Shown: piece after piece, positions 1,785-13,031 of the stretch
Layout: each line of letters begins with the position of its first letter
Position numbering within the stretch: position 1 is the stretch's first letter
Source of the DNA: a virus
Taxonomy: Duplodnaviria > Heunggongvirae > Uroviricota > Caudoviricetes
Virus record (IMG/VR): IMGVR_UViG_2548876858_000019
Length of the DNA stretch: 13,031 nt
Strand: one strand, 5' to 3'
The notes under the pieces: model-generated
Told to the model about the DNA's origin: nothing
The model's database searches: none
What the model saw: only the letters and a program-made list of their open reading frames with translations
Program-made: the position numbers and the translations under genes

Positions 1785-2124
1785 AACGATAAAAACATCT
1801 CATTAAGGCCATAGAGATCGGCCTATTCCGTCAGTTTCAATAATGAATAGTTGGATGAAAAAACGACGGGGCAGGGGGCTGGCAAATCTGCGAAAAGGTT
1901 GAAAAATGCGCAAAAAAGTTATCACACCCCACGCATTATACAATGCTGCTCGCAAACCAGCGCCAACTCTGGGAAGTCAGGGGGATACACCCTAAAGTAT
2001 TTTTTTCATTTTATGTATACCAGAATGGCTTTAAATCACTCACCATCCAGCGCTATAACCGGGTTTAACCGTGTATACCATCCCCCATGTGATATGACGT
2101 ATTCTCATTCATAAAACCCTTTAT

Positions 2125-2200
2125 TGTATCGAATTTGACACAATACCCGCCCGCAGTAATCAGACCGTCAAGCAAATATCGTTGTACTGTTCACGACACA
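2125..2200 (+). promoter_or_regulatory. two TGT-N12-ACA dyads (Ogr/Delta-box-like) upstream of the portal gene
   Basis: TTGTATCGAATTTGACACAA (2124-2143) and TTGTACTGTTCACGACACAC (2182-2201); each has exact TGT-N12-ACA spacing and shares 14-15 of 20 positions with the dyad upstream of the sid-like gene. Confidence 0.4.
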
Positions 2201-2236
2201 CCTGATCACTCAAGAATTGTTCACAGCGAGAAAAAT

Positions 2237-3262
2237 ATGGATAACCCGGACAAAACTCCCGTACCTGAGGTCACTGTAGCAACAGAACCGCAGCCCTCTG
2301 CAGAATGCTTCACCTTTGGCGATCCCATTCCGGTACTGGACCGGCGCGAGCTGCTTGATTATGTGGAGTGCGTACAGATTGATCGCTGGTATGAACCGCC
2401 GGTCAGTTTTGCCGGGCTGGCACGTACCTACCGCGCTGCCGTGCATCACAGTTCACCAATTGCTGTTAAGCGTGACATTCTCAGCAGCACCTTCATCCCA
2501 CACCGCTTGCTCAGCCAGCAGTCTTTCGCCCGTTTCGTTCAGGATTATCTGGTGTTTGGTAATGCTTATCTGGAAAAGCGCACCAACTGGCTGGGTGATG
2601 TCCTCTCACTGGAGCCAGCGCTGGCAAAGTATACCCGGCGCGGCGTTGACCTAGAATCCTACTGGTTTGTGAACTACGGCCTGACGATGCAGCCTTATGA
2701 GTTCACCAGAGGCAACATTTTTCATCTGATGGAGCCGGATATTAACCAAGAGATTTACGGGCTGCCCGGTTATCTCTCCGCCATTCCGTCAACCCTGCTC
2801 AACGAGTCCGCAACGCTGTTCCGTCGGAAATATTACATCAACGGCAGCCATGTAGGCTTCATCATGTACATGACCGACGCTGCGCAGAATCAGGAGGATG
2901 TGAACAACATCCGCAAGGCAATGAAAAGTGCCAAAGGACCGGGCAATTTTCGCAATCTCTTTATGTACTCACCCAATGGCAAAAAAGATGGCATCCAGAT
3001 CATCCCCCTATCCGAAGTTGCGGCGAAAGATGAGTTTCTGAACATCAAGAACGTGAGCCGTGATGACATGATGGCAGCGCACCGTGTGCCACCGCAGATG
3101 ATGGGAATCATGCCGAGTAACGTTGGGGGGTTTGGAGATGTAGAAAAAGCCAGCCGTGTTTTTGTTCGCAACGAACTGATGCCGCTACAGAAGCGACTGC
3201 AGGAACTGAACGACTGGTGTGGCGAGAAAATAATTAGTTTTGAACCTTATACACTTGAGTAA
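2237..3262 (+). CDS. phage portal protein, P2 Q / PBSX-type
   Basis: 341 aa from ATG 2237 (track ORF starts at TTG 2135; trimmed); portal-like clip motif RDDMMAAHRVPPQMMGI; length close to P2 Q as I recall it; ends at TAA 3260-3262 before a terminator. Confidence 0.7.
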   Translation: MDNPDKTPVPEVTVATEPQPSAECFTFGDPIPVLDRRELLDYVECVQIDRWYEPPVSFAGLARTYRAAVHHSSPIAVKRDILSSTFIPHRLLSQQSFARFVQDYLVFGNAYLEKRTNWLGDVLSLEPALAKYTRRGVDLESYWFVNYGLTMQPYEFTRGNIFHLMEPDINQEIYGLPGYLSAIPSTLLNESATLFRRKYYINGSHVGFIMYMTDAAQNQEDVNNIRKAMKSAKGPGNFRNLFMYSPNGKKDGIQIIPLSEVAAKDEFLNIKNVSRDDMMAAHRVPPQMMGIMPSNVGGFGDVEKASRVFVRNELMPLQKRLQELNDWCGEKIISFEPYTLE

Positions 3263-3263
3263 T

Positions 3264-3289
3264 AAAAAAGCCACTGAAGTGGCTTTTTT
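3264..3289. terminator. bidirectional rho-independent terminator between portal gene and gene Y
   Basis: AAAAAAGCCAC-TGAA-GTGGCTTTTTT: GC stem with 4-nt loop flanked by A6 and T6, so a U-run follows the hairpin on both strands; 1 bp after portal stop and 8 bp after Y stop. Confidence 0.65.
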
Positions 3290-3291
3290 AT

Positions 3292-4257
3292 TTAATCGGG
3301 AAGGTTACGTAAATCGATATATGAGAAAAATGCGGCACCTTTCTCAGTTAACTCGTATCGAAGATATCGATTTTCCATTATTGGCGTTGTTTTGAGTAGG
3401 CCATGGACCATCATTAACGTGCAAACATTTCTAACCAAAAAACCAGCTAAGTCAGTCGAATTTGATCTTAACCCAGAAAGAATAGTTCCTCTATACAGCA
3501 AAATGAGTCGCATTGCTGTTGTTTTAACTGGCTCTGGAGTTTCGGATAATTTTGTCGGGATCGTTAACTGTGTATTTTCAAATAGCTTATATATTTTACT
3601 GAACTCTTCCTCAGATGGTTTTTTTACTATAGCTTTACTTTCAGGAGAACGTGCAGCTCTGAGAAGTTCAACCTCAGATTTTAAAGCTTCATTTTCCTTC
3701 GTTAGTTTAGATATTTGTTCTATTAACACACTTGACTCTGATATTTCCTTTCCAGAAACCCACCCAAGGAGATTTCTCTCGACACCAATTTGAGGAAGTG
3801 TCTTATAAATTGATATTTGTATATCTTTAATATCCCGAAAAAATTCCACCGGATACCCCTTGACCTTTTGTTTGAAAGCTTCATATTTTGTCGGGTTATC
3901 TAATTCAAGAACTTCCTTACCAACTGTTTTAACTTTTTCATCTAGATATTCGTCATCAATGACTATCGAAAATAGAGGTTTGTTTGTACTTAAAGCATAA
4001 TCATATTCGAGCTCTGTATAGCAATAATCACTGCCGGGAGCAATCGTTCCATAACGCCCTCCCAGAATAAGGATGTAGATATCTGACTCATCTATCCAGC
4101 GCTTAATAATTTCTAACTGGCTTCTGTCTCCAGGCTTAAATAGCTCCATTCCCGCAGGTATATGCCCGGCAGTTAATATGGCACTTACCGCAGCTTGCCT
4201 TTCTTCAATGAGGTCTGTAAAAGTTGATGAAATGAAAACTTGAAATTTCCTATTCAT
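3292..4257 (-). CDS. DUF4062-like domain protein with coiled-coil and C-terminal domain of unknown function (candidate defence cargo)
   Basis: 321 aa from ATG 4255-4257; N-terminus MNRKFQVFISSTFTDLIEERQAAV...ILILGGRYGTIAPGSDYCYTELEYDYA fits the FISSTF/ER/GGRYG/TExEY signature I associate with DUF4062; central coiled-coil (ISKLTKENEALKSEVELLRAA); visibly AT-rich; terminators on both sides. Confidence 0.8.
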   Translation of the reverse strand: MNRKFQVFISSTFTDLIEERQAAVSAILTAGHIPAGMELFKPGDRSQLEIIKRWIDESDIYILILGGRYGTIAPGSDYCYTELEYDYALSTNKPLFSIVIDDEYLDEKVKTVGKEVLELDNPTKYEAFKQKVKGYPVEFFRDIKDIQISIYKTLPQIGVERNLLGWVSGKEISESSVLIEQISKLTKENEALKSEVELLRAARSPESKAIVKKPSEEEFSKIYKLFENTQLTIPTKLSETPEPVKTTAMRLILLYRGTILSGLRSNSTDLAGFLVRNVCTLMMVHGLLKTTPIMENRYLRYELTEKGAAFFSYIDLRNLPD

Positions 4258-4518
4258 TTTTTATCCATATAGAGTTATTGTCATCTAACATACCTACAAA
4301 ATGCTATAGGTAAATTTAAGTTGGTATTATTAGTCTTTTACTAGTATCTAATGCTGAAAAAGTTGATGAAAGAAAGACATTAGACGCAGATACCAACATC
4401 AGAGCATAATCATATGATATAGGTTAAAGCGTGTTCAAGACCGATTAACGTAAGTTCCCTAGATCTCCCCTCAGCGCGAGCAGCCCCGCCCGCCTGCCCG
4501 CTTCGCTTAACAGAATGG

Positions 4519-4632
4519 TTTTCATGCACCCCGTAAATCGCCTCAGGAGCCGCCACACAAGGGCTTTCACGTCAAAAATGATGCATGAGACTCATGCGTT
4601 TTCATGCGCCATAGACATGCACTCATGCGCTC
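4519..4632. repeat. cluster of CATGC-containing direct repeats (TTTTCATGC x2, ACTCATGCG x2, six CATGC cores)
   Basis: Seen at 4519-4527, 4599-4607 (TTTTCATGC) and 4589-4597, 4621-4629 (ACTCATGCG), plus further CATGC at 4583 and 4616; intergenic between Delta terminator and Y promoter region. Confidence 0.35.
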
Positions 4633-4656
4633 TCAGGCCAGCCAGGAAAAAGGCGT

Positions 4657-4683
4657 AAAAAATCCCGGTGCCGGGCCGGGATT
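4657..4683 (-). terminator. rho-independent terminator of the sid-delta operon
   Basis: AATCCCGG-(7 nt)-CCGGGATT hairpin 4661-4683, followed on the minus strand by TTTTTTACGCC; 21 bp downstream of the Delta stop. Confidence 0.6.
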
Positions 4684-4703
4684 AGGTAGGCGTTTTTTGC
4701 TAA

Positions 4704-4976
4704 TCAGACAGGGATTTGCTGGCGGCTTGATAACTTTGATGCAGAGCCATAGCGATTGAGCGTTTGCTGTTGTTTTTCCGGCATTTGTGCTTTGTCTGAT
4801 TCCTGTTCATTGCGCCGGGGCTTCATAATTATCTTATCCACACTTTCCAGAGCGGTAAATGTGCAGGAACATTCAAGATTCTGGCACTGATACCATGAGC
4901 GTTTAACCGACGGTGCTTCATAGGCGGTGGTTCTGGCGTGTGCAACGGTGCCGCATTCAGGACATTTCAGCGCCAT
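4704..4976 (-). CDS. Ogr/Delta-family zinc-finger late-gene transcription activator
   Basis: 90 aa, MALKCPECGTVAHARTTAY...YQCQNLECSCTF: C-x2-C...C-x4-C motif and overall pattern of P2 Ogr / P4 Delta; ATG overlaps the TGA of the upstream sid-like gene (ATGA). Confidence 0.85.
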   Translation of the reverse strand: MALKCPECGTVAHARTTAYEAPSVKRSWYQCQNLECSCTFTALESVDKIIMKPRRNEQESDKAQMPEKQQQTLNRYGSASKLSSRQQIPV

Positions 4977-5737
4977 CAGATACCCTCCATATCACGGTTA
5001 CGTTTCTGCAGCTCTTCACGTTCCTGACGGATCTTCATTTTGTGAAGGGCCGCCGGTGACGGGATTTTGCTTAAATCGACACGAGCCGCATAATCCGGCG
5101 CAACGCCCGCCAGTTTAAACACAGGGTCCAGTTCCGGCATCGCAGTGTTAGCAAGAGCCGGTTTGGTGATATGTTTGTGAATAAAGTCTTTCAGCAGTGT
5201 GTCCGGGTCATTAACTGAATTCACCACCCCCACAACGGCACTGGCTTCCCGCCCCATTGTGGTTTTGAGCAGGCTCAGTGTCTGGATTAACGCCTTACCA
5301 TGCGCCTGCATGAAGTCTTCCCAGATTTGCTTTGCGCGAATTTCCACAAGGGTGTTATGTGCGCTGATATACTGCCCGGCTAATTTCCCGGCTTCCTGCG
5401 GTAATAAGGCATTTTCGCTTTCCTGAGCTGCCAGCAGTTCATCAAAATCCTCAAGCGTTTCTCGTCCCAGCGCAATTTCCGTGCGCAGTTTTTTCATTTC
5501 CTTTGAGACTACGCCCTGACTTTCACGAAACAGCGTGCGCCACTCCTCATTCAGCGCGTTCGTCGTGGCTTCCATTTCAGCCCGGCGCTGGCGGATTGTC
5601 GCAATATTATCCGCTGCCGCTTTCTGCCGACGACGTGCTTCAAGCCATGCGCTTCTGGCTGTATTCAGGGTTTCCATTGCCTGCTGCGTTACAGCCGGAA
5701 AAGTGGAAAGGTTGTTATTCTCTGCGGTGTTGTTCAT
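4976..5737 (-). CDS. Sid/Psu-family protein (P4 capsid size determination-like; Psu-like not excluded)
   Basis: 253 aa, coiled-coil rich; segment AGQYISAHNTLVEIRAKQIWEDFMQAHGKALIQTL matches the Psu/Sid family pattern as I recall it; sits directly upstream of and coupled to delta as sid does in P4; AGGAGA Shine-Dalgarno before ATG 5735-5737. Confidence 0.65.
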   Translation of the reverse strand: MNNTAENNNLSTFPAVTQQAMETLNTARSAWLEARRRQKAAADNIATIRQRRAEMEATTNALNEEWRTLFRESQGVVSKEMKKLRTEIALGRETLEDFDELLAAQESENALLPQEAGKLAGQYISAHNTLVEIRAKQIWEDFMQAHGKALIQTLSLLKTTMGREASAVVGVVNSVNDPDTLLKDFIHKHITKPALANTAMPELDPVFKLAGVAPDYAARVDLSKIPSPAALHKMKIRQEREELQKRNRDMEGI

Positions 5738-5771
5738 GACTTCTCCTGCCGGGTTGGTTCGTTACGTCAAT

Positions 5772-5827
5772 TGTGTCGTGACTGACACAAGCGCACTATC
5801 GGCGCTCAGTGTGTGGTGGCTGGCACA
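5772..5827 (-). promoter_or_regulatory. Psid-like late promoter with two Delta-box dyads
   Basis: TGT-N12-ACA at 5772-5789 (within TTGTGTCGTGACTGACACAA) and at 5810-5827; centres 38 bp apart and about 43 and 81 bp upstream of the sid-like ATG, consistent with activator sites near -18 and -55. Confidence 0.55.
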
Positions 5828-5914
5828 ACGGGCGTTTGCGGTTATTCAGACGCGGCCATGACAGCCAGCCAGATAAAAATGCCTCTGTTTCAGCCTGCTT
5901 TATGTCCCGGATGC

Positions 5915-6110
5915 GGTGAAACAGGTGGAACAGGTGTTACAGCATTGTTTTGTAAAACATTTATATGCACATCACAGGTGAAACATCGCAGGTAACAAGG
6001 TGGAACAGCGGATCGGCTGGCGTTCCACCTGTTCCACCTCACTATTTCAGAAGGTGAAACAGGTTTAGCCCTTGTAAAATACGGGTGTTCCACCTGTTTC
6101 ACCTGTTACC
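5915..6110. repeat. iteron array, candidate replication origin / crr-like site
   Basis: At least nine copies of the 9-mer GGTG(A/G)AACA or its complement TGTT(C/T)CACC: plus orientation at 5915, 5924, 5977, 5999, 6053; minus orientation at 6021/6030, 6086, 6095, with tandem pairs; AT-rich stretch 5941-5970 in the middle; 28 bp downstream of the primase stop. Confidence 0.7.
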
Positions 6111-6137
6111 CTTAATAAATAAGACTCACGCAAAGCC

Positions 6138-8810
6138 TTAACCCGGCACCTCGCTGTTGAAGACATAGAGTCTGCGGGGATTCATCTCTGGCGGGCGAAT
6201 GGTTGTCTGCAGCTTGCCATCGGTGGAGGGCAGCAGGTATCCACGATCCGCGCACAGACGCGCCACCTTGCGCGGGTCAAATCCCCGGCAGATTTCTTTC
6301 CAGCCGGACGGCATGACGTAGAACGTGGTGACGGCCTCCGTGCCCTGCGCGGTACTGCCTTTCTCCACCCTGCGCCAGCCCACCATATTGCCGGGGCGGT
6401 TACGCTCGTCGTGCCAGTCAGCAAAGCGGCTGTACTGATTCGCGGTAAAGAAGCTGCGTACCTGCTCCAGTGCGGCAATATCTTCCTGATTGGCGGTGTG
6501 CCCGCGATCTTTCAGCCATGCGTTCAGGCAGACGCGGGTTGCCCGCAGCGCTTCACCCTCAGGCCAGCCGGTAATACCCAGCCGGGTTGCCAGCTCGCCC
6601 GCCATCGCCACCAGTGCAAAGCGGTTCACAGCCCGGCCTACCTGATTACCCGCATCTTTCGGGGTCAGGGCGGCTGTATATTCCTTCATCAGTGACTTTG
6701 CCTGTGCCGTCAGCCCGTTAAGGTCAGCGGTCAGGGCTTTCAGCCACTCCCTGAACGGCGAACCGTAGTAGCTGGACGTGGCCCACTCCAGATGTTCCGC
6801 CAGAGCCTTGCCGCTGTCGAAGCCGTGCAGCTCCTCAAATACGCCAAATTTCCCGGAATCGCTGGGGATCTGGATCATCCTGACTTCCATCCCGGCAAAG
6901 GTACGCTCACCGGCTTTTGCCGCATGTTCGGTCAGTGACAGCTCGCCGGTTGAAAAGAACAGCAGCCGCCACTGCTTACGGGTGCGCAGCTCACCGTCCG
7001 TACCGGCACGGCCCTTGCCCTGACCGTTTGCCAGCATGTAGGCGATATTACCCGCCTCGCGTCCGTCCACCTCCCGGATCTCATCGAGCATCATGGCGGC
7101 ATCGTTGCGGCGGCTGGCGCATCCCTCCAGCGCGTTGCCGGTTGCCCGCCACGTCTGCCAGTAATCAGGCCCGCCACAAACGGAGGTTGCCGCTTTCATG
7201 GTGGTGGTCTTACCGTCAGTCGATTCCCCCTTGAGGTGGTAGCCGCCGCCGTCCATCCCAACCAGCCGTAACAGGGGTGCAGCAAAGGCCAGACTGACGG
7301 CAAACGCCACGCGGGAGTTACCGGTGCAGTAACGGGAAACGTGCTCCCGCCATTCCTCCGTTGTACCTGACACACGGAAATCGCGCCCCTGCACGGAAGT
7401 GGTCTGGAGAATGACACCCTCTGCACCTTCACCGCTGACCTCATCCTGCAGGACGTAAACCTGACCATGCCAGCCAGTGCGGCTGACGCAGGTCACGCGG
7501 CGTTCCGGTTTACACAGCGAGATATATTCCATCAGGCGGGCGCGGGCCTCACCGGTGGTGCTGATATAGGACAGCCCGTTAACCAGCAGTACCCGGCGTA
7601 GTTCCTCACCGCTACCACTGAGCATTTCCATCGGCATCGCCCAGCGGCGGCGCTCTCCCCATGTATCTTCCCACTCCAGCAGTCGCCCGAAATTACCGCC
7701 ATCAGCATCGCAGGTGATTGCCGTCACGCGCAACGGGTTGCATATTTTGACGTTCTGGATCTCCGTCTCACCGTTGCGCTGTACCTGTTTTTCATACCAG
7801 AGATATTCCTGGGTAAGACGGAACCCGTGCGGCAACTGCGTGCGGCCTTCTCCGCACAGTACAAGACCGTTACGAAAGGCTTCACGGGCACGTGTAATAC
7901 CGTGCTCACGGTGGAAGTCATTCCAGTCAGCTTTAATTTCTCCCGGTGGCAGCGTCACCCAGCCACCGACTGATTTTGCCGCCCGTTCAGCAAAGGATCT
8001 GCCGGGATTCTCGCCCCCGTCCTGAAAATCGTTATCACCGGCGATGATAATTTTTACCTCAGGCCAGCGTGCCCGCAGCGCCTGTGCGACGTTGGGCAGG
8101 TTGCCCGCCGATATGGCCGCCACTACGCATCCGGCGGTGAGCTGGCTTACCGTCAGCGCCGTGGCGTAACCTTCGGTAATCACCACCTGTACCGGCGGTT
8201 CAGACGGTAACGGGCTGAGCGCCACAAACGCGCCTTTCATCGTGCTGCCGGGCAGTATGCTTTTTTCACCCGTCGGGGCGATAAGCTGTGCACCGGTCAC
8301 GGCTCCGGCGTTCGTCGTGAGCGGTAACAGCAGGGAACCGGCAGGGAAATCCTTACCACTGATATGCTGCACGCTCCCGGTCAGGGAGGCCGGGTATCCG
8401 GCGAACCCTTTTCCGGTCAGATAGGGGCTTTCTCCCGTGTGACTCTCTTTCATCAGGGCCGCCACGGTAAGGCTCATATCGCGTTTAGGGGCTTTTTGCC
8501 TGGCGGGCTTAACGGGCAGTTCCTGCACATCCGGCACATTAAGCACCTGCGCCACCTCCTGCGCTGCCTTTCTGATGCCGTAACCGGTTATGAGCTTAAC
8601 CAGATCCAGACCATCACCATTGCCGCACTGGCTGCAAATCCACGTCCCGCGCCCGTCGAGGTCATCGAGGCGGAAGCGATCCTTGCCCCCACATTTCGGG
8701 CAGGGACCGTGCCTGCCGTTTTCAGGTACATCAATACGCAGCATCTGCAGAATGACGGGCCATTTTCCCCGCGCTGCGGCTGAAATCTGCGTAACCGTCT
8801 GTGTTGTCAT
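6138..8810 (-). CDS. P4 alpha-type primase-helicase (zinc finger + Toprim + P-loop NTPase)
   Basis: 890 aa; N-terminal HGPCPKCGG...CSQCGNGDG zinc finger; Toprim-like ITEGYATALTV and IIAGDNDFQDGG; Walker A GESTDGKTT; GGGGGA Shine-Dalgarno; ATG overlaps the TGA of the upstream ORF. Confidence 0.85.
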   Translation of the reverse strand: MTTQTVTQISAAARGKWPVILQMLRIDVPENGRHGPCPKCGGKDRFRLDDLDGRGTWICSQCGNGDGLDLVKLITGYGIRKAAQEVAQVLNVPDVQELPVKPARQKAPKRDMSLTVAALMKESHTGESPYLTGKGFAGYPASLTGSVQHISGKDFPAGSLLLPLTTNAGAVTGAQLIAPTGEKSILPGSTMKGAFVALSPLPSEPPVQVVITEGYATALTVSQLTAGCVVAAISAGNLPNVAQALRARWPEVKIIIAGDNDFQDGGENPGRSFAERAAKSVGGWVTLPPGEIKADWNDFHREHGITRAREAFRNGLVLCGEGRTQLPHGFRLTQEYLWYEKQVQRNGETEIQNVKICNPLRVTAITCDADGGNFGRLLEWEDTWGERRRWAMPMEMLSGSGEELRRVLLVNGLSYISTTGEARARLMEYISLCKPERRVTCVSRTGWHGQVYVLQDEVSGEGAEGVILQTTSVQGRDFRVSGTTEEWREHVSRYCTGNSRVAFAVSLAFAAPLLRLVGMDGGGYHLKGESTDGKTTTMKAATSVCGGPDYWQTWRATGNALEGCASRRNDAAMMLDEIREVDGREAGNIAYMLANGQGKGRAGTDGELRTRKQWRLLFFSTGELSLTEHAAKAGERTFAGMEVRMIQIPSDSGKFGVFEELHGFDSGKALAEHLEWATSSYYGSPFREWLKALTADLNGLTAQAKSLMKEYTAALTPKDAGNQVGRAVNRFALVAMAGELATRLGITGWPEGEALRATRVCLNAWLKDRGHTANQEDIAALEQVRSFFTANQYSRFADWHDERNRPGNMVGWRRVEKGSTAQGTEAVTTFYVMPSGWKEICRGFDPRKVARLCADRGYLLPSTDGKLQTTIRPPEMNPRRLYVFNSEVPG

Positions 8811-9471: not shown

Positions 9472-9502
9472 CGTGGATTACTCCGTTTTCAGCGGTGTTT
9501 TG

Positions 9503-10710: not shown

Positions 10711-11685
10711 TTAAAATCTTCCTGCTTTAGATGAGCTAAGACATTCTTTTATCTTATCTTTTCCAAGTTCAACCTTTGTTTTTGGATTGTTTCTTTCTGC
10801 CACGATTTTATCTGCCCACGCGTCAATAGTCAGTTTTCCTCGTTTTCCATTGCAAGATGCTGGGTCATTTAGTAACCAATAAATAGCTGCTTTGTACACT
10901 GCCTCTCTTTTTGTTGCTGATGCTTCAACATTACCATGCACTCTTCGGATGCTTTCGATGCTGGATACACCACCATTCACATAGCTGGGTAGCTCTTTGC
11001 CAACACCGTTATCTAATTTTTCTATTTGGTATCTTGTTAAATAGATATCATCCAGTGTTATATTTCCAATAATATTTTTATTAGATGGAGATACTAATCC
11101 CTCTATTGATGATAAGCCTTCGAAAGGGGACATTGCTAATATTACCCACTCATCACTGCCAAATGCAGCATTAGTGAATGGCATATTAGCTTCTTTAAAA
11201 GAAATATCATGTGCTAATAGCCTTGCTTTACCATATACCTTTAGTTCTTTGTATAATGAAGATGTTGGGCTGATGACACATATAGACCACAATCCAGAAA
11301 GTAAGATTAATGGGCTTTTTATATTTGGTTTGTTTTCTAAATGGTATATTTGTTTTGGAGGTGAAAATGGCTTATCTTCTGTATAATCAATATCGAATTT
11401 TGCTTTTGGTATGAAATGGCTTAATGCAGATTTATTACTATAGTTTAATACTCTGGGTGGGTACATGTTTTCCCAATCTTTAAAATCTCCACCTTTACGC
11501 ATCATCATTAGCGCAGCTTCGAAACCATTTAATTCTAAGCAAAATTCGATAATTCCAATTTGAGCAAAATGGATAAGGTCATCAATTTGGCAATTAAGTA
11601 GTTCAGCAGCTCGTTTTAGGGAGCAAAATTCCATTACAGGAATACTATTCCTTTCCCAAACATTTAATCGTGTATTATCGCTCAT
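10711..11685 (-). CDS. hypothetical protein X, AT-rich, between integrase and alpA
   Basis: Track ORF starts at TTG 11763 overlapping the int stop; ATG 11683-11685 has a good AGGTGA Shine-Dalgarno and gives 324 aa starting MSDNTRLNVWERNSIPVMEF; no motif I can name; visibly AT-rich. Confidence 0.6.
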   Translation of the reverse strand: MSDNTRLNVWERNSIPVMEFCSLKRAAELLNCQIDDLIHFAQIGIIEFCLELNGFEAALMMMRKGGDFKDWENMYPPRVLNYSNKSALSHFIPKAKFDIDYTEDKPFSPPKQIYHLENKPNIKSPLILLSGLWSICVISPTSSLYKELKVYGKARLLAHDISFKEANMPFTNAAFGSDEWVILAMSPFEGLSSIEGLVSPSNKNIIGNITLDDIYLTRYQIEKLDNGVGKELPSYVNGGVSSIESIRRVHGNVEASATKREAVYKAAIYWLLNDPASCNGKRGKLTIDAWADKIVAERNNPKTKVELGKDKIKECLSSSKAGRF

Positions 11686-11759
11686 CACGTCACCTGTATG
11701 CACATATGGTAAAATGGGGCGAATAGCAGACTTTACTACTATTAGCCATTTTCTTATTT

Positions 11760-13031
11760 TCAAACAACGCGTAGTTTTTTCATTTTATAGGGGGCAATAT
11801 ATCTATCAGTGTTAGCTTCAATATAATTAGACCACCATTGCATCATCCGACGACGTTCATGCATATGCTGAGCTAAGTGTACATAAGCGGCTCGCACTTC
11901 ATTTCGTTCTTGATGGCTCATTTGCCGTTCTACTGCATCCCTCGACCATAAGCCTGATTCTGTCAGGGCTGAGCACGCCATTGCCCTAAATCCATGAAGG
12001 CAAATGTCCACCTGCGTGTCGTACCCCATAATTCTTAATGACTTATTAACTGTGTTCTCACTCATTGGTTTGTAAGGGTTACTATCTCCGGGGAAAATAA
12101 GTTCATACTCACCACTTATTTTTTTAATAGCTTCGAGAACATCAATAGCTTCATTAGATAATGGAACATAATGAATACTGCCCATTTTTGCCCCACGCTC
12201 TGAATATTTTACCCCATCAATTCTTTTTCTTTGAGCAGGAATAGTCCACATTGCATTTTCAAAATTAATTTCCTCCCATCTTGCGTGTCTCAGTTCACTG
12301 GAGCGAACAAAAGTATGAAGAGAAAATAATACTGCCAGCTTAGTTAACGGCCTCCCTGTATAGCTATCAATTTTTGATATTAATTCGGGTAATCGTTCTA
12401 ACGGAAGTGCAGGGCGATGCTTTATTTTGGGGCTGGAAATTGCTCCTCTTAGATCATGGGTAGGATTGTATTCAACAATTCCACGCTGAATAGCGTACCG
12501 GAAAACGCTTGCAAGAGTAGTTTTCACTCTTCCTGTTGTTGCTCCAATTCCCTGATCACTCATCCTCACCAATAATGGCAACAGGTCACTTGTTTTTAAT
12601 GAGTCGATGGGTTTATTTCCGATATATGGGAAAATATGATTTTCCATTTCTCTTAAAATTTTAGTGCGGGTAATCTCTTTCCATGAGGGATGGCCTATAG
12701 AGCCTTTATGCCACTCTAAAGCGATTGTCTGGAATGTAGCAGAGGCGGGTTCTGTTGGCGCTGCTTTTTTAGATACTCTGGGATCAACACCGTCGGCTAA
12801 AAGTTGCCTTGCTTCATCTCTACGCTTACGGGCAAGTGCCAGCGAAACGTCTGGGAAAACGCCCAAAGCCAGCGTAGCTTGTTTGCCGTTAAATCTGTAG
12901 TTCATTCGCCATGCCTTGGTCCCGTTCTTTTTAACTAAAAGATACAGGCTTCCCCCATCCGTCAGTTTGTAGTCTGTTTCTTTGGGTTTAGCGTTTTCAA
13001 CTTTCTTGGGTGATAGCTCATTTAGTGCCAT
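11760..13031 (-). CDS. tyrosine recombinase, P4 / CP4-57 IntA-type integrase
   Basis: 423 aa; N-terminal arm-binding region (YKLTDGGSLYLLVKKNGTKAWRMNYRFNGK); catalytic-region HGFR (HxxR) and tyrosine in RAAYVHL; start codon is the last three bases of the window, facing the presumed tRNA. Confidence 0.9.
   Translation of the reverse strand: MALNELSPKKVENAKPKETDYKLTDGGSLYLLVKKNGTKAWRMNYRFNGKQATLALGVFPDVSLALARKRRDEARQLLADGVDPRVSKKAAPTEPASATFQTIALEWHKGSIGHPSWKEITRTKILREMENHIFPYIGNKPIDSLKTSDLLPLLVRMSDQGIGATTGRVKTTLASVFRYAIQRGIVEYNPTHDLRGAISSPKIKHRPALPLERLPELISKIDSYTGRPLTKLAVLFSLHTFVRSSELRHARWEEINFENAMWTIPAQRKRIDGVKYSERGAKMGSIHYVPLSNEAIDVLEAIKKISGEYELIFPGDSNPYKPMSENTVNKSLRIMGYDTQVDICLHGFRAMACSALTESGLWSRDAVERQMSHQERNEVRAAYVHLAQHMHERRRMMQWWSNYIEANTDRYIAPYKMKKLRVV

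Follow-up and report, generated by a model that had tools for sequence, protein, structure and literature searches.

Organization of the element

The window, i.e. the whole stretch of DNA analyzed here (13,031 nucleotides), contains a P4-like satellite prophage inserted at tRNA-Arg. A 16-bp att repeat (CCCTGCAGGAATCGAA), which corresponds to the 3' part of tRNA-Arg, is located at positions 1696-1711. Over the 4.1 kb that were compared (window positions 1800-5900), the sequence is 100% identical to the chromosome of E. coli strain UTME-8. The minus strand carries, in this order, an integrase gene, a TOPRIM/DUF927 primase gene, a gene of the Sid/Psu family, an Ogr/Delta gene, a cos-like site and a DUF4062 gene. 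A portal gene is encoded on the plus strand and faces the minus-strand satellite genes. The features on which the present analysis is based are listed below; scores in bits refer to the weight matrix described in the section on the activator boxes, and positions with a sign are relative to the predicted transcription start.

2124-2143 (about -65 to -46): dyad 1, predicted -55 activator box of the portal promoter; exact dyad, 16.2 bits, 0 of 20 positions variable, left edge of the shared module
2177-2182, plus strand: -10-like hexamer TATCGT; recognized by its spacing to dyad 1 and its invariance in the satellite copies
2182-2201 (about -6 to +12): dyad 2, second activator-type box over the predicted start; exact dyad, 14.8 bits, half-sites invariant
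2186-2190, plus strand: predicted transcription start, near 2189; placed according to the annotated starts of P2
2237-3262, plus strand: portal gene, 341 amino acids; Pfam Phage_portal, 8.6e-17
3261-3292: bidirectional terminator hairpin for the convergent portal and DUF4062 genes; 14-bp perfect stem with flanking A/T runs, -21.2 kcal/mol, z = -5.8
4468-4540, minus strand: cos-like packaging site, flanked by delta and by the variable cargo; aligns locally with the cos junctions of P2 and P4
4704-4976, minus strand: Ogr/Delta-family activator gene, 90 amino acids; Pfam Ogr_Delta, 1.1e-16
4976-5737, minus strand: Sid/Psu-like capsid-morphogenesis gene, 253 amino acids, first gene of the sid-delta late operon; Pfam Psu, 1.1e-7
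5770-5791, minus strand: proximal one of the two boxes of the sid-like promoter, overlapping the -10-like CACAAT at 5770-5775; exact dyad at 5772-5789 with 21.0 bits
5808-5829, minus strand: upstream (-55-type) box of the sid-like promoter; exact dyad at 5810-5827, 16.5 bits, 34 nt to CACAAT

The features of P4-like satellites that were tested for are present, namely an integrase, an alpha-type primase, a sid/psu-type gene, delta, a cos-like site and integration into a tRNA gene. P4-like satellites possess a separate psu and no structural gene set, whereas the present element has no separate psu and carries one structural gene, the portal gene. The Ogr/Delta protein contains an exact CX2CX22CX4C zinc finger (C5-X2-C8-X22-C31-X4-C36, as read from the translation). 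In RefSeq the product of the Sid/Psu-like gene is named either 'phage capsid morphogenesis protein' or 'polarity suppression protein'. No clear match was obtained when the cos junctions of P2 and P4 were used in a blastn-short search; the cos-like site was found via its conservation among the satellites and via alignment with phage loci, and its alignment to the cos region that directly follows the portal gene in one phage locus (L010) is stronger than that to the P2 and P4 junctions. The portal gene faces the cos-like site as it does in P2-like phages, with variable cargo in between.

In the window, the slot between cos and portal is filled by the DUF4062 gene (3292-4257), whereas other copies (L002-L004, L006) have a gene for a 120-aa hypothetical protein there; the portal gene is thus a neighbour of the variable, defence-hotspot-like cargo position of the satellite. 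Iteron-like repeats (GGTGRAACAGGT and relatives, on both strands) are clustered at 5915-6113, between the primase gene and the sid-like promoter, and may represent the replication origin. A 350-aa open reading frame (10711-11763) adjoining the integrase gene is without a Pfam match and is listed in RefSeq as hypothetical. The approximately 410 bp from the att repeat to dyad 1 (1696-2123) are without a convincing gene; this stretch travels with the element and is 90% identical in the copy from Pantoea stewartii (L006). The leuX-type copies have an integrase-proximal region with a hairpin in its place.

Origin and distribution of the portal gene

The portal protein shows 61% amino acid identity to gpQ of P2. 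Its residues 21-341 are up to 92% identical to the portals of complete P2-like phages, in which the terminase, scaffold and capsid genes adjoin the portal gene, and the homology to phage portals at the DNA level begins near codon 21. Judged by these similarities, the portal gene is a capture from a P2-like phage. About 1240 E. coli genomes contain a portal gene with 80-90% DNA identity; one such gene belongs to the P2-like prophage of BL21(DE3). The region upstream of the portal gene in its satellite form was found in about 14 of 5426 complete E. coli genomes, and the satellite-type portal region was also found in Pantoea stewartii, Pseudocitrobacter and a few metagenome or viral contigs.

Among the satellites, dN/dS of the portal gene is 0.03-0.075 at a dS of 0.44-0.60; as far as can be judged from these ratios, the gene is under strong purifying selection. 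Compared with the window, the Sid-like and primase proteins of L002-L005 are 100% identical, whereas the portal genes differ at a dS of 0.44-0.52 and the promoter differs at 8-12%. Because the backbone is identical and the portals are divergent, the portal module has a separate history, be it module exchange or recombination with phage portals. The simplest history would be that a phage arm consisting of cos, portal gene and PP promoter (the promoter of the terminase and portal genes in P2-like phages) was captured and that the terminase gene was lost; it is suggested by the portal gene facing the cos-like site, by the homology beginning near codon 21 and by the edge of the module at dyad 1.

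Activator boxes in the window

A preceding reading made from the sequence alone (the sequence-only reading) had reported two exact TGT-N12-ACA dyads upstream of the portal gene, and both are indeed present. Dyad 1 (TTGTATCGAATTTGACACAA, 2124-2143) contains the exact pattern at 2125-2142 and dyad 2 (TTGTACTGTTCACGACACAC, 2182-2201) contains it at 2183-2200, which gives a start-to-start distance of 58 bp; the portal ATG follows at 2237-2239. Both dyads had further been described as sharing 14-15 of 20 positions with the sid-side dyad (TTGTGTCGTGACTGACACAA, 5771-5790). This is correct for dyad 1 (15/20), whereas dyad 2 reaches 14/20 against the reverse complement only and agrees at 12/20 positions on the same strand. 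The number of matches to the bare TGT-N12-ACA pattern is, taken alone, not significant: five are found in the window versus 2.83 expected, and five or more were obtained in 30 of 200 shuffles.

A symmetrised weight matrix of 26 nt was derived from 35 unique intergenic PO/PP boxes of P2-like phage loci, with no satellite box included. Applied to the whole window, it yielded exactly four sites, with scores of 14.8-21.0 bits. Two of them are the portal-side dyads (16.2 bits for 2125-2142 and 14.8 bits for 2183-2200) and the other two lie on the sid side (21.0 bits for the proximal box at 5772-5789 and 16.5 bits for the upstream box at 5810-5827); the next best site (5066-5083) scored 2.1 bits. 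The number of sites with at least 14.8 bits expected in 13 kb is 0.02 according to an exact calculation and 0.026 according to 2000 Markov simulations, versus the four observed. The suspicion that one of the two portal-side dyads was fortuitous can thus be dropped, given scores of 16.2 and 14.8 bits against 0.02 expected sites. The fifth bare match (11263-11280) was rejected as an activator box; with a score of -1.9 bits it is a chance match.

In a scan of 39 kb around the BL21(DE3) prophage with the same matrix, the top match was the PO/PP box (23.9 bits), followed by a dyad 58 bp from it that lies over the terminase start codon (14.0 bits) and by a box centred 55.5 bp before the start codon of the baseplate gene V (12.7 bits). 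The latter is the expected PV promoter, which is absent from the training set, and thus serves as an outside check of the matrix. The boxes of P2 itself, which are imperfect, were not recovered (best score 4.3 bits, at pF), and neither was the -55 box of P4; since it performs poorly on the P2 and P4 boxes, the matrix describes the helper lineage related to the present satellite. The box of P2 has the form TGT-N12-CCA, whereas the satellite boxes have the form TGT-N12-ACA.

Only the proximal one of the two sid-side boxes had been recorded in the sequence-only reading. The two are 38 bp apart, and the P4 record has the same 38-bp pair of boxes before sid, at 9493 and 9531. The Psid promoter of P4 and the sid-like promoter of the window share with the portal promoter the activator family, a -55-type box 34 nt away from the hexamer, and the presence of two boxes, the second of which is located inside the core promoter. 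They differ from it in their layout, because the boxes of a Psid-type pair are 38 bp apart with the second box over the -10 (CACAAT), whereas the portal boxes are 58 bp apart with the second box over the predicted start. When tested for the 38-bp layout, the sid-like promoter of the window (5772/5810) shows it and the portal boxes do not. Delta has reportedly been seen by Julien and Calendar, in 1995, to footprint both Psid boxes, at -55 and -18.

Predicted core promoter before the portal gene

According to the P2 record, the PP start (3016) and the PO start (3127) are each located 55.5 bp from the centre of the box that the two promoters share. In both directions, the -10 hexamer follows the end of the box after 34 nt, and transcription starts at the 7th nt downstream of this hexamer. 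The same distance of 34 nt is found between the end of dyad 1 and TATCGT, which thus occupies +35 to +40 after the box and represents a weak -10 (4/6). At +35 to +40, 50 phage PP promoters have TANNYT (TATGTT, TATTTT, TAGTCT, TAGGCT and similar), and P4 Psid and the sid-like promoter of the window have CACAAT. Since dyad 1, the 34 nt and TATCGT follow each other as in P2, the start is predicted near 2189, with the centre of the box at -55.5 and a leader of 48 nt, and from this start dyad 2 would span about -6 to +12. The geometry had been regarded as noncanonical on account of the 58-bp spacing and the nearness of dyad 2 to the ATG; however, the centre of dyad 1 is 55.5 bp before the predicted start, exactly as for the P2 box. 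A consensus scan of the plus strand from 1650 to 2400 found no sigma-70 promoter with consensus -35 and -10 elements, as expected for an activator-dependent promoter.

Some other arrangements were considered and rejected. With dyad 2 as the -55 box, ATATGG would have to serve as the hexamer and transcription would begin ten bases inside the open reading frame. For leftward promoters from either dyad, the hexamers at the right spacing (read by hand) would be GGGTAT and ACATGG; in addition, the left flank differs between the element types. An N-terminally extended portal protein starting from the in-frame TTG at 2135 is contradicted by a 1-nt indel at 2233, which breaks the frame in most copies.

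Similarity to the late promoters of helper phages

The PP promoters of P2 and P2-like phages resemble the portal promoter in that the centre of the dyad is 55.5 bp before the start (a predicted one in the present case), in the 34 nt between the dyad and TANNYT and in having no -35 element; in the phages the promoter ultimately drives a portal gene, as the portal promoter would in the satellite. An exact second dyad at +58, which overlaps the terminase start codon, was found in 10 of the 46 unique phage PP promoters, with scores of up to 14.0 bits, and also in BL21. The 58-bp spacing, which had seemed aberrant, is accordingly a layout that occurs in the PP (terminase/portal) promoters of helper phages. 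In most phages the counterpart at +58 is degenerate and lies within coding sequence, and it may thus carry no function in the phages.

In an ungapped comparison anchored on dyad 1, window positions 2144-2203 match the phage PP promoters at up to 33 of 60 positions (mean 25.5), as compared with 14.8 +/- 2.4 for the shuffled window segment, which reached the observed mean in 0 of 2000 cases, and with 17.8 for the PO side of the boxes. A GTCAAG block before the hexamer is common to the satellite and the phage PP promoters. The best match of a phage PP profile (nhmmer) within the window is at 2123-2187 on the plus strand, with an E-value of 0.009 that is marginal and stems partly from the dyad itself. 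A blastn search with 2100-2300 against all phage loci gathered returned words of 12-14 nt only, and no homologue of this region was found in the phage and plasmid collections. Given that blastn came up blank and that matches were obtained only with the register-anchored comparison and the profile, the similarity is a distant one, and it could be due in part to convergence on the same functional elements.

The differences concern mainly the surroundings. PP of P2-like phages is followed by a terminase gene, whereas the satellite promoter lacks one and is joined to the portal gene via a 36-nt leader after dyad 2. PP is located between the divergent P and O genes and shares one box with PO, whereas the window contains neither a P or O homologue nor a divergent PO. 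Finally, PP is part of a phage, whereas the portal promoter is part of a satellite, in which conservation of the DNA does not extend leftward beyond the box. The portal promoter therefore does not represent PP in place, but it probably works like PP and was derived from it. A different late promoter of P2-like phages, PV, also has its box centred 55.5 bp before the start codon of V in BL21, and in the P2 record the start of V transcription is annotated at the start codon. PV has a single box and a leaderless message, whereas the portal promoter has two boxes and a predicted leader of 48 nt.

In related P2-like phages (L008-L034), just 6 nt separate the end of the PP -10 hexamer from the ATG of the terminase gene. 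The terminase message of these phages would accordingly be leaderless or nearly so. In a subset of them, the terminase ATG is overlapped by a second dyad of the activator type; in the BL21 prophage (L093) this dyad is located at 6730-6747. We know of no description of either the near-leaderless terminase message or the dyad over the terminase ATG.

Conservation among the satellite copies

Variable positions were counted in eight distinct satellite copies, which are 88-93% identical in the promoter region. None of the 20 positions of dyad 1 and none of the six positions of TATCGT is variable. Dyad 2 has four variable positions out of 20, every one of them in the central spacer, and its half-sites are invariant. 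Variable positions amount to 11/33 in the spacer between dyad 1 and the hexamer, to 25/60 in the first 20 codons and to 67/129 (52%) among the four-fold sites of the portal gene, a benchmark taken from a shallow clade and perhaps inflated if the portal bodies recombine with phage portals and the promoter does not. Regarding the positions of box and hexamer, 0/33 are variable versus 23/80 elsewhere (Fisher p = 1e-4). Against the four-fold sites, p is 5e-5 for dyad 1 and 0.004 for the half-sites of dyad 2; across the conservation contrasts, p ranges from 2e-6 to 0.004.

The four boxes are retained with their 58-bp and 38-bp spacings in all copies compared. The presence of the dyads in the homologous regions of related elements, on which the sequence-only reading had made its proposal depend, is thereby confirmed. 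The sole copy with a broken dyad 1 is L090, a partial sequence on the metagenome contig OKPJ01000297.1, in which TGT is changed to TTT (TTGTAT to TTTTAT); the change may be due to an error in sequencing or to decay of this copy.

In argW-type as well as in leuX-type elements, the left edge of dyad 1 is precisely where the shared module ends. An att repeat was looked for beside dyad 1 and none was found. Because the att repeat is located at 1696-1711 and not at dyad 1, the break in homology at dyad 1 represents a module boundary and not the end of the element.

Interpretation of the putative portal promoter

The region 2124-2236 would belong to the P2/P4 class of Ogr/Delta-dependent late promoters, as every feature that can be tested on a sequence fits. 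The class features seen are the TGT-N12-ACA dyads, a core promoter without a -35 element and the gene for a cognate CX2CX22CX4C activator. The best explanation, to which we assign a probability of about 0.7, is a promoter of the PP type, at which Delta or the Ogr of a helper, acting at dyad 1, would switch on the portal gene from a start near 2189, alongside the sid-delta operon. The earlier proposal that the portal gene is under control of the element's own Delta thus gains support from the strength of the motif, the spacing of dyad 1 to the -10-like hexamer, the presence of an Ogr/Delta gene and the conservation. From these features we infer the binding of the activator, the start site, the dependence on the activator and the role of dyad 2.

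In detail, dyad 1 would be the activator box, with its centre about 55.5 bp before the start near 2189, and TATCGT would serve as a weak -10 with no -35 element. A zinc-finger activator on dyad 1, be it the 90-aa Delta of the satellite itself or Ogr from a helper phage, would recruit RNA polymerase, and transcription of the portal gene would be confined to late times. [quoted passage not shown] The sid-delta operon, which has its own pair of boxes, would be switched on simultaneously. Dyad 2 would be a second, somewhat weaker box for the same activator, placed over the start site, and would correspond to the dyad over the terminase start codon in a subset of the helper PP promoters. As an occupied box over the start should hinder the polymerase, it cannot be that both boxes simply activate. 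For dyad 2, a modulatory role is most likely, for instance that of a brake which would limit or time the expression of the portal gene when the activator is abundant.

With regard to the role of dyad 2 only, it is possible, if less probable, that the box acts as a positive co-site instead of a brake, either through cooperative binding or because it is preferred by the helper Ogr or by the satellite Delta. Psid, which is a strong late promoter, and the sid-like promoter of the window likewise carry their second box inside the core promoter, and the half-sites of dyad 2 are conserved; but a protein bound at -6 to +12 normally blocks the formation of the open complex, and the centres of the portal boxes are 58 bp or approximately 5.5 helical turns apart, which places them on opposite faces of the DNA.

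The layout of the promoter as a whole could also be read in the manner of Psid, with dyad 2 as the proximal box (about -18), dyad 1 as a distal box (about -76) and a start near 2210. The distance from the centre of dyad 2 to the portal ATG (45.5 bp) is close to that from the proximal box to the sid ATG in P4 and in the window (43.5 bp), and the satellite's own sid-like promoter uses two boxes. Still, this reading is unlikely: the portal boxes are spaced by 58 bp and not by 38 bp, dyad 1 follows the -55 rule exactly and has an invariant hexamer, and the 58-bp arrangement is that of phage PP promoters with the second dyad at the start site. Moreover, no conserved -10 follows dyad 2, because CACACC is a poor one and CCTGAT varies at 2204/2205.

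Even less probable is that the boxes are a fossil, i.e. that they stem from a phage PP promoter, arrived together with the portal gene and are now unused, the portal gene being expressed otherwise or never. Inheritance is suggested by the collinearity with the phage PP promoters, the phage counterpart of dyad 2 sits in coding sequence, and one copy (L090) has a broken dyad 1. An unused promoter is hard to reconcile with an invariant dyad 1 and -10 next to spacer, N-terminal codons and four-fold sites that vary at 33-52%, with the strong purifying selection that appears to act on the portal gene among the satellites, and with the lack of an alternative consensus promoter on the plus strand between 1650 and 2400. 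Finally, that the short dyads arose by chance in AT-rich intergenic DNA can practically be dismissed, since the bare-pattern count met by 30 of 200 shuffles is outweighed by the four extended-motif sites found where 0.02 are expected per window, each of them directly upstream of a late-type gene and kept in all satellite copies compared.

Implications for P4-like satellites

P4, the textbook satellite, brings along no structural genes, and two Delta-dependent promoters, Psid and PLL, are known from it. Recent surveys of P4-like satellites and their hotspots make no mention of a satellite portal gene. What lies before the portal gene would be a known type of promoter in an unusual place, namely a helper-type late promoter in front of a satellite portal gene. 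While such a promoter would be ordinary for its class, the context is more interesting, in that a small clade of P4-like elements appears to keep a helper-derived portal gene under purifying selection and under helper-type late control. This would provide a concrete and testable case of gene flow from P2-like phages to P4-like satellites. Furthermore, the activator regulon of the satellite appears to be readable from its sequence by means of a matrix trained on helper boxes, with exactly four boxes in two promoters.

A more speculative and rather doubtful extension of the PP-type reading is that the satellite took over a helper arm (cos, portal gene and PP promoter, minus the terminase gene) and makes a divergent portal late in infection through the activator logic of the helper. 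The portal would then seed procapsids that favour the satellite or compete with the helper portal, and dyad 2 would be an activator-operated brake on the portal dose. If true, this would represent a satellite-encoded step of structural takeover undescribed for P4-like elements, and the activator box at the start site would be an unrecognised control feature of the PP promoters of P2-like phages.

One further match to the matrix was observed in the BL21 prophage (L093 16090-16107); it scores 11.4 bits and is located inside a gpD/VgrG-like remnant, approximately 280 bp upstream of ogr.
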